A stretch of 64,000 nt of DNA, from the NCBI RefSeq assembly GCF_003018255.1, contig NZ_CP027440.1, one strand, 5' to 3'. Positions 45,260 to 53,130 of this stretch are shown in pieces. Position 1 is the stretch's first letter, and every line of letters starts with the position of its first letter. Under the pieces are notes generated by a model. The model searched no databases. It was not told where the DNA came from and was given only the letters and a program-made list of their open reading frames with translations. Source of the stretch: Escherichia coli (GTDB lineage: Bacteria > Pseudomonadota > Gammaproteobacteria > Enterobacterales > Enterobacteriaceae). Made by a program: the position numbers and the translations under genes.

Positions 45260-45397
45260 ATGCTGACGAAATATGCCCTTGTGGCGGTCATGGTGCTGTG
45301 TTTAAAGGTAATTTTTATCCGGTTTATTCGGAGCAATAGTGATTGCAAGCGTATCAAGAAAATTCTTATAGAACTGAGCAATTTGTTGCCAGAATGA
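45260..45397 (+). pseudogene. hokE: hokE toxin gene remnant (Hok N-terminus intact for about 15 codons, then unrelated sequence)
   Basis: ATG 45260 encodes MLTKYALVAVMVLCL (Hok family N-terminus); after about 45304 the frame reads KVIFIRFIRSNSD..., unlike Hok; expected position downstream of ybdK. Confidence 0.5.
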
Positions 45398-46330
45398 CGA
45401 TACAACCTGATCCAGAAGTAATATAGAACGCCCGTCGCAAACTTGGGGAGTATGCAGAACATGGAATGCCTGAGAAGGATAACCACTCCAGTCAACGGCA
45501 ATGACGCACAACGTAAGGTCTCGGGGCTGAAACCGGGTAATATTATGAAAAATAGCCGGGATATCGCGGTGTAAAGCGTCATTGCCTGGCAGGCGATCGA
45601 TGGGCTTAATCTTGTTTTAACCTGAGCATTACCTGGCATATACCGTCCAATGCTGGTAAGGATGAGGGATGCGTCCCGACTAAGCGCAGCAGTGGCGTCA
45701 AGGATGGCATTCTGGCGGTACTGATGAAATGGAGTCAAATCATCACGGAAAAACTTTTGGCATGATGAGCGAACGGGCATAGAGGTGATCTCCTGAATTG
45801 TTAGCACAACCAGTCGACCACAAAACTCTATGCCCGTCTTTTTTACCCGCCTATTACTGAGGATTTCTCCGTACCATTACCGGCATTTGTTATCTTTCAT
45901 TGCTACATACGTCATCCCCCAACAAAGCAATGCTTTATAATATTATCGTAATGTCTTATTTTTTATTATTGCGATGGCTTTCTGAACATTTTATAGTGTT
46001 AGGTGTAAATCATTTATATTGATTCACGATAGGAGGATATGGACACCACACTTATTTTATGTCACTCAAGAAACACTTAAAATTCGTTGCACGTGTTATT
46101 ATTCTATTAAATAATTGCACATAATAGATTTTTTCTATTATGTAATAAAATAAAACACTATTAGATACTAGATATGCTAATGGTTTTATACTCTAAATAA
46201 TTCGAGTTACAGGTAGTGTATAAGTGAGTTCCCAAGAGCTTGCATAAGTAAGTGACTGAGGGAGCGTAAGTGCAGTACATGCAACTTGTTGCATGACAAA
46301 TATATTATCTATTAACAATAAGAGGTTATA

Positions 46331-46693
46331 ATGAAGAAATATATTTTAGTATCTCTGATGGGATTAAGTTTGAACGCATTTGCGGGTGGCAGCGGCTGGA
46401 ACCCAGACAGGGTAGACCCGAGCCGTTGTGTTATGGCGACGGGGTCAGGTCCTACCTCTGCGGGTTATATGGTATACCGAACGACTGACTCAGTGTGTAT
46501 GCAGGGTATAAATGAAGGAAAAGTGAAAGGTGTCCATATTTATGATGGGCATCATGAGTTCAATGATGGTACTGTTGACACGTTTAGCGGTAATGTTACC
46601 CCAATATCACCTTTGACATTAAAAACTGATGTTCAAAAAGTTAATAAAGTTGGCATCAAACGCTGGTGGTATAAAGCTAGCTGGATTAAATAA
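46331..46693 (+). CDS. small secreted protein, candidate cargo of the adjacent Aat-like system (dispersin/CexE-like; predicted mature N-terminus Gly-Gly-Ser-Gly)
   Basis: 120-aa ORF with RBS aagagg, signal peptide MKKYILVSLMGLSLNAFA and predicted signal peptidase I site AFA|GGSG; immediately upstream of the PABCD-like operon. Confidence 0.7.
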   Translation: MKKYILVSLMGLSLNAFAGGSGWNPDRVDPSRCVMATGSGPTSAGYMVYRTTDSVCMQGINEGKVKGVHIYDGHHEFNDGTVDTFSGNVTPISPLTLKTDVQKVNKVGIKRWWYKASWIK

Positions 46694-46732
46694 AAAATAC
46701 CTTGCCAAACGTTAATAAATAACTTAAACACA

Positions 46733-46768
46733 TCGAATGCGAATCTTTGCATTCGGTGTATTTTTTTC
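46733..46768 (+). terminator. intrinsic terminator/attenuator between cargo gene and transporter operon
   Basis: Hairpin cgaatgcgaatctttgcattcg followed by tgtattttttt. Confidence 0.65.
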
Positions 46769-46774
46769 AAAAAA

Positions 46775-49849: not shown

Positions 49850-50475
49850 TTAAATTAGATATTTATGAAAAACAGTTCAAGGATAAAAAAATCCTTAGTT
49901 CTATATCTGTTAATGTTGAAAAAGGTTCATTTCATGTTATTACAGGGCCTTCCGGGGTCGGAAAGAGTTCACTGTTAAACATACTTGGTTTGTTGGATAG
50001 TGAATTTGATGGGAATTATGAGTTTTGTGGTAAAAATATTAATCCGAAGGATTACAATAAAACTTCTCGTATAAGGAAGGAGTATTTTGGTTTTATATTT
50101 CAAGATTCTCTCATTAATGAAAAACAAAGTGTACTACGTAACATTCTATGCTCCGTAGATTATCCTTATTTAAAATTCGCAGAGAAAAATGCGCATACCA
50201 TGCTTGAAATCGTTGGACTCCCTATGCCTGATATGAAGGTTGTGAACCTTTCAGGGGGAGAAAAACAGCGTCTTGCTCTTGCAAGAGCTTTAATAAAAAA
50301 ACCTAAAATTCTTTTGGCCGATGAACCCACCGCGAGTCTGGATAAAAATAATAAAAGGATTATTATGAATATTTTATCCGAATATAATAAAGATGGTGGA
50401 AGTGTCGTCATGGTGACACATGATCTTGAACTAATCACAAGCGACATGAGTTTAATTAAATTAGAGAACAACTAG
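49846..50475 (+). CDS. ABC transporter ATP-binding protein (AatC-like)
   Basis: 209-aa ORF with Walker A GPSGVGKSS, ABC signature LSGGEKQRLALARAL, Walker B ILLADEPTASLD. Confidence 0.85.
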   Translation: MIKLDIYEKQFKDKKILSSISVNVEKGSFHVITGPSGVGKSSLLNILGLLDSEFDGNYEFCGKNINPKDYNKTSRIRKEYFGFIFQDSLINEKQSVLRNILCSVDYPYLKFAEKNAHTMLEIVGLPMPDMKVVNLSGGEKQRLALARALIKKPKILLADEPTASLDKNNKRIIMNILSEYNKDGGSVVMVTHDLELITSDMSLIKLENN

Positions 50476-50483
50476 CCAACAAG

Positions 50484-51704
50484 ATGTTTTTGCATATTTT
50501 ATTATTTATCTTCATGCTTTGTTATTATCTGATTTCTAAAGGTAATATTAAGTTATTTTTATTTTTCGTATTAATATATTCTTTTGGCTTGTCATTTGAA
50601 ATGGTTAATGAATATTTTTTTTCGTTAACTCCAACAGTTCATTTCAATTCGATTATTTTATTATATGTTGCTTTATGTAATATCCTGATATTTACCCTAT
50701 ATTACAAGTTATCAAAGAACGGTATTTGGGGATGTGCGATATACGCCGCTGCGATTACCGCTATTTCAGCGATAAAAATATCAATCCCATTAAACCCAAT
50801 AATATTATATTATAAATACAACCTATTTATTCTACCGCAAACAAATTCTCCCTTGCTTAATCTGTATGTTATAAATTTATTACCAGCATTATTTTTTTGT
50901 TGTGATTTTAAAAAAATAATGCTGGTAATTCTATGCTATTTGGCTATGATATTACCCTGTCGCATGCTAATTTCAGATAAAATACCAAAGAGTAATATCG
51001 CTGTTATTCAAGTTGGTCTTTATTATAAAAATGGAGGGACACCTGAAAGGTTTTATAATGACATGGCGAAATTTATAAAAGAAAACAGTGTTGACCTTAT
51101 TGTTTTTTCTGAGAATGTTTACTTTGGTTATAAAAATGAAGTTATTAAAAAAAATACGGATGATTTGTTACTAAAGATTAAAACTGATTCAACACTTAAG
51201 CAAAAAGCATTTTTATTTAATTTTTTTGGATACAAAAAGTTTAATAATGTTATATCCATGTTCTTGCATGTGGATAATTCGCAATTACATCAGAAAACAG
51301 CATTAATTCCTTTTATAGAAAAAAGAGGCGTATTCAATGCTCCAGAAAAGCTTTCATCAGAATATCTAAATATCGATAAAAAAATAAAAAATAATAATAC
51401 ATTTAAGCTTCATGGCTTAAGTTATAGCATATATATATGCTATGAAGCACTGTTTCCTGAAAAATATGTACACAACGGGGTCGTAATAACACAATCTGAT
51501 TACATAAGACTTAATAACGGTAGGGGATATAAGACTACATTGGTTAACGGTAGCTTACTTGCAAAGTTTTCCGTTGCACCAAACACCAAGTTAATAAATG
51601 TCCAGAATTATGGTGGAACTATTGTTTTTAATAATGATTGGGAAATTGACTGGGATATTTATAACAAATCCAAAAAAGAACATTTTTTTGTGGTTACTTT
51701 ATAA
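50484..51704 (+). CDS. apolipoprotein N-acyltransferase (Lnt)-like membrane acyltransferase (AatD-like)
   Basis: 406-aa ORF: polytopic N-terminus plus C-terminal nitrilase/CN-hydrolase-like domain with candidate E-K-C triad contexts (LIVFSENVY, KTALIPFIEKRG, ICYEALFPE). Confidence 0.75.
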   Translation: MFLHILLFIFMLCYYLISKGNIKLFLFFVLIYSFGLSFEMVNEYFFSLTPTVHFNSIILLYVALCNILIFTLYYKLSKNGIWGCAIYAAAITAISAIKISIPLNPIILYYKYNLFILPQTNSPLLNLYVINLLPALFFCCDFKKIMLVILCYLAMILPCRMLISDKIPKSNIAVIQVGLYYKNGGTPERFYNDMAKFIKENSVDLIVFSENVYFGYKNEVIKKNTDDLLLKIKTDSTLKQKAFLFNFFGYKKFNNVISMFLHVDNSQLHQKTALIPFIEKRGVFNAPEKLSSEYLNIDKKIKNNNTFKLHGLSYSIYICYEALFPEKYVHNGVVITQSDYIRLNNGRGYKTTLVNGSLLAKFSVAPNTKLINVQNYGGTIVFNNDWEIDWDIYNKSKKEHFFVVTL

Positions 51705-51851
51705 TACAGCGAGGGAGTGTTGTTGAAATTTTTATGAGCTATTTACGCGCCCACATATTATTCAAGTCTTGCATATATATGCTGAGTAGTTAAATTCCCC
51801 TGTGCTATGCCAGTTACTCCATTCGCTTCTAAGTAGCTGATCCTAATACCG

Positions 51852-52687
51852 CTACACTTTAGCCAGCCCATGCTTTCCACCGGGGAATGGGCTGACGGTA
51901 TCCATAAAGTGACGAACCTTTTTCAACAGTTGCCACATTGAACGGCACTGGTGATTTCGGGTTATTGTTTCATGAAGCGCCTGCCACAACCGTTCGACAT
52001 GATTGACCCATGGCGAGTAAATTGGCTGATAAATCACCCTGAACTTTGGGTTTGCTTTCAGCCAGCGCAACGTTTCACAGCTTTTGTGGGTGATGTAGTT
52101 ATCGACAATGAGCGTAATCTTTTTTGCCCGTCAGTATGTCTCCTTCAGATGTTTTAACAGCCTGATAAATAAGGATGAACCTTTACTGTTTCCACCCACG
52201 TAGCTGACTTTGCCCGTACCACTGTGCAGCGCACCGGCAAGATAGTACTTTTCATTCCGGCCCGGCGTAACAACGCGCTTTTGCTGCCCGCGTAACTGCC
52301 AGTCTGCGCCGATTTTGGGATTGAGGTGGATCTCCACTTCATCTTCGTAAAACACAGGGTGTTCTATGCTACAACTGACTAACGCTACATTAATCGCTGC
52401 CATTTTTTCTTCCTTATTCGGGCCCCGGATACGCAGTGTTGGTGCTGCTCTGCGCCATACCAGTTCGGCTGCAGGTAACCATCGCCGGGAGAATGCTTAA
52501 CAAGCTCACGCAGCAATGCGCAAATATGCTCGAACGGCCAGCGCCTCTCACGTCCTGACGGCAATGACTTCAGGCCTTCAACACCCGACAGCGTGAACCA
52601 GTTAATCCAGCGACCAATCGATGAGCGAGCACAGCAGAGTGTTCTGGCAGCATGACTGACGGTGTCACCACGATGCAGCATCAGCAT
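51852..52687 (-). pseudogene. IS630-family transposase, disrupted into three reading-frame fragments
   Basis: Minus-strand ORFs 52385..52687 (HTH-like N-terminus), 52131..52403 and 51852..52070 (C-terminus ...YSPWVNHVERLWQAL...) in different frames. Confidence 0.75.
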
Positions 52688-53130
52688 GGCTGTGAGCCGC
52701 CGGGCGTGGTTTTTTGTCCTTTGTTTTATGGATCGTTTTCTGGATCAGGCGTCGTTCAGTTCTGGGTATTGGTGCTATGATCGGCACTGCTCCGTCCGGT
52801 TGGTGATTTGGGATATTCAGCGATTGATCAGATCGCATAATCGACTCTGTAACAACCTGAACGGTGTCGGGGTGGTAACATAGGTTAGGAAACAGGGTGC
52901 GGATGCCATCATGGCGCGGGTCATCAGTCCACTAACGACGCCGGATATATGGCAGCAAATCAGTGGTTGTATATTGAACAACTATAATAGCGTCAGATCT
53001 CACCATTATAACGGTGGGCTGACACCGAAAAAATTAGAGAACAGATAACGTTCTTAGCGTAAAACGGTGGTCAATATTACTTGACTACTACAAGCAATGG
53101 TTGCTGGCTAACCACAGTAAGGGTTATCCA

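Follow-up and report, generated by a model that had tools for sequence, protein, structure and literature searches.

The Aat system of enteroaggregative Escherichia coli (EAEC), said to have been described by Nishi in 2003, is an export system for the coat protein dispersin. The classical probe for EAEC (CVD432/aatA) is based on it, and known Aat systems depend on an activator of the AraC/XylS family (AggR, Rns/CfaD or RegA). We know of no other machinery in bacteria by which a glycine of a protein is N-acylated. Here we describe an AT-rich island lying between hokE and entD in a 64,000-nucleotide stretch of an E. coli chromosome (contig NZ_CP027440.1, assembly GCF_003018255.1), referred to below as the window. 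The cargo of the island is very probably a complete, divergent Aat system, consisting of a dispersin-family gene and aatPABCD, brought in as a pre-assembled block from an E. ruysiae-like donor. The Aat system and this exact set of proteins are already known; what is added here, modestly, is the history of recombination and the chromosomal setting. A first-pass annotation, made from the letters of the window, had marked the island and left its cargo unrecognised.

In EAEC the system is carried on pAA plasmids and comprises aap, the dispersin gene, and aatPABCD (Belmont-Monroy 2020, PMC7478709). The window shares with it the order of the genes, the overlaps of aatP with aatA and of aatA with aatB, and the protein families. 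It differs in being chromosomal rather than plasmid-borne, in the divergence of its proteins (35-61% identity), and in that no AggR/Aar regulon context is visible. The substrates of enterotoxigenic E. coli (ETEC) H10407 and of Citrobacter rodentium are of the CexE type (Icke 2021, PMC7943197; Rivas 2020, PMC7344145), and they resemble the window substrate in having a Sec/signal peptidase I (SPI) signal peptide, an invariant glycine after it, and no lipobox cysteine. The AatD tetrad E-K-E-C is also common to these systems and the window. Mutating these catalytic residues (Glu, Lys, Glu and Cys) abolishes acylation of CexE (Icke 2021, PMC7943197). The C. rodentium system is chromosomal, as is that of the window. 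AatD of the window is about 37% identical to ETEC AatD, and among the known substrates it is Aap, rather than CexE, that the window protein resembles more. In the window the substrate gene is found 81 bp upstream of aatP, whereas more than 1 kb separates the two in most Aat systems; the locus thus fits the organisation class with a substrate gene <400 bp upstream of aatPABCD, which accounts for 18.4% (Icke 2021, PMC7943197). Both WP_001561605.1, which is identical to the window substrate, and the AatP of E. coli KTE75 under the adjacent accession, WP_001561606.1, are catalogued in the supplements of that study, and the AatD of KTE75 was used in the phylogeny of its Figure 3 (Icke 2021, PMC7943197).

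Six intact open reading frames (ORFs) on the same strand fill positions 46331-51704. The first (46331..46693, plus strand) encodes a dispersin-family (Aap/CexE) coat protein of 120 aa, with the signal peptide MKKYILVSLMGLSLNAFA and the mature N-terminus GGSGWN. Full-length comparison with Aap of EAEC 042 and of O104:H4 gives 45-47% identity, and a phmmer search matches the protein to the dispersin structure PDB 2JVU (E=3e-23). The mature N-terminus is identical to that of EAEC Aap, both cysteines are conserved, and the window protein carries a 6-residue insertion relative to Aap. SignalP assigns the identical protein WP_001561605.1 to the SPI class, with cleavage at AFA-GG and a probability of 0.91 (Icke 2021 supplement, PMC7943197). 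The predicted features are therefore those of a substrate of an Aat system: a Sec/SPI signal peptide, a mature protein that begins with glycine, and no lipobox cysteine. The NCBIfam models gave no match for this protein, and the Pfam copy used for the profile search did not contain the Dispersin model; PF28204 (Dispersin) is precomputed on near-identical (99.2-99.7% at the nucleotide level) copies in related loci.

The next four genes, aatPABC, form a contiguous and overlapping unit on one strand (46775-50475), and each has a full-length homologue in EAEC 55989, with E-values from 3e-120 to 2e-74. AatP (46775..47902, plus strand; 375 aa) is a permease of the FtsX/MacB type belonging to the ATP-binding cassette (ABC) transporters; it is 48% identical to its EAEC 55989 counterpart over the full length, and is matched by the Pfam models FtsX (E=7e-4) and MacB_PCD (E=1.6e-3). 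The start of aatA (47899..49113, plus strand) overlaps the stop of aatP, as in EAEC. Its product, a TolC-like outer-membrane channel of 404 aa, is 35% identical over 390 aa to AatA of EAEC 55989 (E=2e-74), has a weak match to the TolC model TIGR01844, and is named 'TolC family protein' in RefSeq. The gene for the periplasmic adaptor AatB (49037..49849, plus strand; about 270 aa) overlaps the 3' end of aatA, again as in EAEC; AatB is 48% identical to the EAEC 55989 protein in an alignment that begins at residue 13 of the longest ORF, and has a weak RND_mfp match. AatC (49846..50475, plus strand; 209 aa) is an ABC ATPase of the LolD/MacB type, 61% identical to that of EAEC 55989, with a match to LolD TIGR02211 (E=2e-44) and with Walker A (GPSGVGKS), signature (LSGGEKQR) and Walker B (ILLADEPT) motifs.

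The last gene, aatD (50484..51704, plus strand), begins 8 bp downstream of aatC and encodes an Lnt-like N-acyltransferase of 406 aa that is 38% identical over 401 aa to AatD of EAEC 55989. Model matches are to lnt TIGR00546 (E=3.5e-9, below the cut-off) and CN_hydrolase (E=1.6e-3), and a sequence search of the PDB with AatD found nothing. The residues E210, K271, E279 and C319 are kept, and the motifs SENV, HQK, PFxE and ICYE align with the residues that are essential in AatD. In gene content the island is what an Aat locus should be: it has an aatPABC unit, an Lnt-like AatD with its tetrad, and a substrate gene, the last two lying with the unit in a low-GC region bounded by insertion sequence (IS) remnants. 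RefSeq gives the cargo proteins the names hypothetical protein, permease, TolC family, HlyD family, ABC ATPase and carbon-nitrogen hydrolase, and it is probably because of this generic automatic annotation that the island looks anonymous. The coding sequence of aatD contains an inverted repeat that is perfect over 20 bp and encloses a loop of 11 nt (50879-50929, codons ~133-149; RNA folding energy -23.9 kcal/mol). The hairpin is found in all the chromosomal copies, and the plasmid variant described below is only partly complementary there; the repeat may have arisen by correction of a quasipalindrome, or it may serve as a regulatory hairpin within the gene.

By analogy with the EAEC and ETEC systems, the likely course of events for this copy is acylation followed by export. 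Export of the 120-aa precursor would be by Sec, with cleavage by signal peptidase I at AFA|GG, and the Lnt-like AatD would then N-acylate the new N-terminal glycine, Gly19. The ABC unit formed by AatP and AatC, which is MacB/LolCDE-like, may pull the resulting lipoprotein out of the inner membrane, and the AatB adaptor and the TolC-like AatA channel would convey it to the cell surface, where it would form a coat.

The closest relatives of the cargo are on plasmids. A sister variant, found on pDLI.5a and on plasmids of STEC299, O170:H18 and TOE17, has the same six genes in the same order, at 79% nucleotide and 71-86% protein identity. These plasmids are of the IncF type, and the genes lie there beside astA/EAST1 and other IS elements. 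In pDLI.5a (8244-8357), the dispersin-like gene is found ~650 bp downstream of astA, the gene for the EAST1 enterotoxin, and near a copy of IS421; the proximity of astA links the sister variant to classic EAEC-associated cargo. The AatD family as a whole comprises 38 clusters at E<=1e-20, nearly all from Escherichia plus Yersinia, and the nearest relatives of the window AatD are those of the plasmid lineage (71%), followed by proteins at <=54%.

Homology to the plasmid variant is confined to the six genes, stopping 13 bp upstream of the substrate start codon (at ~46318) and at the stop codon of aatD, so that the regulatory regions are unrelated. In the window, the dispersin-like gene is preceded by an AT-rich leader (45876..46330, plus strand) with no ORF of >=60 aa and no homology to the plasmid variant, and this leader presumably holds the promoter and regulatory sites of the gene. 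A scan of the leader for sigma-70 promoters gave fewer sites than shuffled controls and is hence uninformative. A consensus scan also picked out a terminator-like hairpin between the dispersin-like gene and aatP (46730..46759, plus strand), with a 13-bp stem and a T-run; such a structure could act as an attenuator that keeps the substrate transcript in excess over that of the machinery.

The composition of the island is foreign to its surroundings. In 400-nt windows GC is 0.26-0.34 from ~45800 to ~51800 and 0.43-0.55 on either side, which bears out the AT-rich tract that had been placed at about 45850 to 51720; the low-GC tract itself is bounded at ~45876 and ~51828. In a 2-kb profile, GC is lower at 46-52 kb than anywhere else in the window. 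The left boundary was defined by alignment to E. coli CFSAN061763, in which the site is empty. The ybdK-hokE flank is 98% identical to this strain up to 45309, where similarity ends, and it resumes at 53123, the 3' end of entD. Because three or four bases are common to both sides, the junction can be placed no more closely than 45305-45309, and the earlier placement, after about 15 codons of hokE near 45304, was thus nearly exact. What remains of hokE (45261..45309, plus strand) is 15 native codons, MLTKYALVAVMVLCL, that continue in frame into unrelated sequence. The same left junction is found at every island-bearing locus compared.

The toxin gene and its antisense region have fared differently. 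The 5' regulatory part of hokE (mok/sok region, 45113..45268, plus strand) is intact, with a full-length match to the Rfam sok family RF01794 (85.7 bits, E=3e-18) and 98% identity to E. coli; sokE can be placed at ~45158-45217 on the minus strand by correspondence with the K-12 annotation. An intact hok/sok locus would have a Hok ORF of ~50 codons, and only the 15 native codons are present. Loss of the HokE toxin, with the sok region staying behind, is one side effect of the import of the block.

Up to 216 bp of the empty-site reference are gone from the window, namely hokE codons 17-50 and the spacer to entD. In their place, from hokE codon 16 on, stands an accessory block of ~7.8 kb bounded by IS remnants (45310-~53120). 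Neither flanking direct repeats nor a target-site duplication was found around the island, which is consistent with a replacement or deletion. The hokE stump, moreover, is joined to an internal point of an IS4-family element, which argues for a deletion rather than a clean insertion. The first-pass annotation was thus right that a foreign island occupies the hokE site, while its description as an insertion fits less well, as the alignment points to a replacement and, as argued below, to import of the block as a whole by recombination.

IS elements are frequent at this site. In K-12 MG1655, IS186B lies 18 bp downstream of hokE, which agrees with the first-pass annotation, and many other E. coli strains have IS421 downstream or IS150 upstream of hokE; these cases bear out the view of the hokE-entD interval as a repeated IS target. 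As in the window, mobile DNA has there disturbed or inactivated a chromosomal hok/sok locus in the same small ybdK-entD interval. The difference is that those strains have a single IS beside an intact hokE ORF, whereas in the window the ORF is cut at codon 16 and 6 kb of cargo has come in.

Remnants of three different IS elements bound the island, IS4 on the left and IS630 and IS3 on the right, so that the flanking IS630-family element noticed earlier is real but is one of three. The left remnant (45310..~45875, minus strand) consists of the terminal ~95 bp and transposase codons 1-152 of an IS4-family element, with one frameshift. In a blastx comparison with an intact 400-aa IS4-family transposase, residues 1-58 are 69% and residues 56-152 are 55% identical. 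At the nucleotide level it is 70-73% identical to ISSfl9-like elements, and homology to the IS4-family terminus ends at 45869, just where GC drops. With one terminus, residues 1-152 of 400 and a frameshift it is a fragment and not an element, and RefSeq annotates it as 'IS4 family transposase, frameshifted, missing C-terminus'. The guess that 45400-45850 might be left over from another element has thus been substantiated.

On the right, the decayed IS630-family element (51829..52842, minus strand) has frameshifts, an internal stop and an internal deletion of ~89 bp near 52485. It is 90-93% identical, in two pieces that reach across both ends, to an intact 1110-bp copy, and its transposase ORF is in three pieces, the state in which it had been recognised; RefSeq marks it in three genomes as a pseudogene ('IS630 family transposase, frameshifted; internal stop'). 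No TA duplication could be assigned to it unambiguously. Next to it lies the 3' end of an IS3-family element (52843..53096, plus strand, end approximate), comprising the last ~45 transposase codons and terminal sequence. Its 54-aa translation matches annotated IS3-family transposases in a tblastn search (80.6% over 31 aa). A comparison of 52843-53135 gave no match elsewhere in the window, and neither the neighbouring intact IS3-family element nor IS150 matches it.

The foreign DNA does not end with the IS remnants near 52900, where the island had been closed in the first-pass annotation, but runs through entD (53131..53751, minus strand) to ~53872. Identity to empty-site E. coli is ~80% over the 3' 565 bp of entD; over the whole gene it is 83-86% to each of the other complete E. 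coli genomes, as against 98.2-98.4% to copies from the cryptic clade. Among 5,426 complete E. coli genomes the allele is found only in the three that bear the island, and the EntD cluster to which it belongs includes the sequence of E. coli KTE75. The EntD protein is 76-79% identical to the main Escherichia clusters and 63% identical to Citrobacter EntD, and an origin of the allele outside the genus was therefore rejected in favour of an Escherichia-level allele. EntD is unusually variable for a core gene product, with many clusters within Escherichia falling below 90% identity. At the right end of the foreign block stands an intact IS3-family element of 1434 bp (53873..55306, minus strand), inserted with a 3-bp duplication (TTC) into the repetitive extragenic palindromic (REP) sequence that separates entD from fepA. 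The cryptic-clade copies lack this element, and its position coincides exactly with the switch of the sequence back to the E. coli type. In strain ETEC4085 the same entD-fepA spacer has received IS1397, an IS that targets REP sequences. The REP-containing spacer upstream of entD also contains, on the minus strand at 53810-53851, a match to the Rfam small RNA family ES036 (CssrF) that scores 44.4 bits and exceeds the gathering score.

Within E. coli the block is rare. It is present in 3 of the 5,426 complete genomes (JNE23-011, JNE112863 and DETEC-S792), all of them human-associated; the exact substrate protein is recorded on 792 contigs. Other Escherichia, among them Escherichia sp. TW14182, have the same block in the same position, with ybdK on one side and entD-fepA on the other. 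TW14182 is a member of cryptic clade IV, now E. ruysiae. Between the window and the cryptic-clade loci, the IS4 fragment, the leader, the six genes and the IS630 and IS3 remnants are 97.6-99.8% identical, and the flanks are 93-95% (ybdG-ybdK), 90.7% (ybdK to the 5' part of hokE) and 95.8% (fepA) identical. To ordinary E. coli, the flanks of the window are 97.6-99.4% identical. The left flank is a mosaic, being of the E. coli type up to ~45110 and then showing clade-type variants at ~45175, 45286 and 45292, beside the junction. On the right the sequence is of the clade type up to 53872, including ~180 bp to the right of entD, and of the E. coli type from 55307.

From this pattern it appears that the block was assembled once, because every copy has the same junction, the same broken hokE and the same three dead IS remnants. 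It would have entered the present E. coli lineage as a finished unit, by homologous recombination and together with the foreign entD, with crossovers at ~45110-45290 and ~53872-55307. The most likely donor is an E. ruysiae-like strain (cryptic clade IV). Two points weigh against this account. The direction of transfer is inferred from the mosaic flanks and the rarity of the allele and not from a dated phylogeny, and the 40-nt hokE/IS4 junction is absent, in an exact scan, from 100,044 GTDB species-representative genomes, so that the block is accessory everywhere.

The last result bears also on an alternative history, in which the block is original to Escherichia at this site and was lost from most E. 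coli. The identical site and junction in E. coli and cryptic clade IV would suit such a history, yet it is very unlikely. An ancestral segment should show no shift in composition, and the island has a GC of ~0.30 in a backbone of ~0.50; it breaks a hokE gene that is intact in ordinary E. coli, and it has IS remnants at both ends. Furthermore, the block is 98-99.8% identical where the flanks differ by 4-9%, and a divergence that is roughly ten-fold lower than that of the flanks is incompatible with vertical descent. Its presence in only three of the complete E. coli genomes, and the junction in none of the representative genomes, point the same way. Transfer in the opposite direction, from an E. 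coli lineage in which the block had formed to E. ruysiae-like lineages, fares somewhat better, since the block is accessory in both groups and since its copies within the clade are 99.8-99.9% alike when their flanks are 98-99% alike, indicating that it is mobile there too. Even so, we hold export from E. coli to be improbable: clade-type variants in the ~200 bp to the left of the junction and in the ~180 bp to the right of entD, with E. coli-type sequence beyond, are the pattern expected of E. coli as the recipient, and the entD allele is unique among the 5,426 E. coli genomes. Import from an E. ruysiae-like donor remains the preferred account of the history, and the assignment of the cargo has likewise to be weighed against other readings. 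That it encodes generic MacAB-TolC-type efflux or bacteriocin export, with an unrelated small ORF upstream, is suggested by the best NCBIfam match of the ATPase ('putative bacteriocin export ABC transporter', below the cut-off) and by the generic RefSeq names. To these may be added, as a point against an Aat assignment, that AatP, AatA, AatB and AatD have only sub-threshold matches in the NCBIfam and Pfam libraries, so that the assignment rests on direct homology to characterised Aat proteins. That homology is specific, however, for each protein and for the gene order; the small ORF is a clear dispersin homologue, an Lnt-like acyltransferase as fifth gene is a hallmark of Aat, and the same proteins are catalogued as Aat (Icke 2021, PMC7943197). 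Collinearity with aatPABCD and the dispersin homology effectively refute the efflux or bacteriocin-export reading, which is hardly tenable.

A more serious question is whether the Aat genes of the island are used at all. They may have been kept only because their acquisition is recent, being silenced by H-NS and never expressed for want of an AraC-family activator. Several findings that count against a working system lend weight to this possibility: the ORFs of 45310-53130 include no gene for an AraC/XylS-family activator of the AggR, Rns/CfaD or RegA type, and the promoter region of the island is unrelated to that of the plasmid variant. The extreme AT-richness is typical of H-NS targets, and all the flanking IS elements are dead. 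In addition, aatP and aatA of JNE23-011, a complete genome, are frameshifted by 1-bp and 2-bp length changes, and aatA is cut short by a stop codon in one metagenomic contig; this damage could reflect sequencing errors or the onset of decay. On balance we think a silent fossil rather unlikely. None of the six ORFs is broken in the window, and the same holds for 8 of 12 other copies across two species (9 of 12 if a 6-bp in-frame deletion in aatA is allowed); the residues of the catalytic and acylation sites have also been kept. In a comparison of five genes (aap and aatPABC) with the plasmid-borne sister variant, the ratio of nonsynonymous to synonymous substitution rates (dN/dS) is 0.08-0.15, which indicates long-term purifying selection. 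An activator, moreover, could be encoded elsewhere in the genome. A complete Aat system of the dispersin type thus remains the favoured reading of the cargo. More tentatively, and with less confidence than we would give to its denial, one may suppose that a chromosomal dispersin/Aat cassette with no activator beside it recombines between E. ruysiae and rare lineages of E. coli, dragging a foreign entD with it and providing a general surface coat outside the AggR/Rns regulons. If so, the unrelated promoter would put the cassette under different control, and EAEC diagnostics would miss it.

Understanding of the Aat system is unchanged by this locus, the main value of which lies in annotation, with the names aap-like and aatPABCD in place of generic ones. 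Rare E. coli associated with humans, and Escherichia of cryptic clade IV, are shown to have a divergent and complete Aat copy in the chromosome. With proteins 35-61% identical to those of EAEC, this copy probably escapes typing with aatA/aap (CVD432-type) markers. The result is also relevant to surveys that look for EAEC-like traits beyond E. coli. In addition, the locus illustrates cleanly how mobile DNA can destroy a chromosomal hok toxin gene, and how entD, a core siderophore gene, can hitch-hike with an island.

The annotation of the near-identical region of DETEC-S792 shows further features in other parts of the window. An orphan vgrG/Rhs cluster extends from ~14800 to ~30150, with several Rhs core genes that contain internal stops and with small immunity-like ORFs, and beside it, at ~12.7-14.2 kb, lie an ISAs1 element and a SymE toxin fragment. 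At ~2700-3800, upstream of ompT, a prophage integrase remnant and a tail-fibre assembly gene adjoin a tRNA-Arg gene, a site of the DLP12 type.

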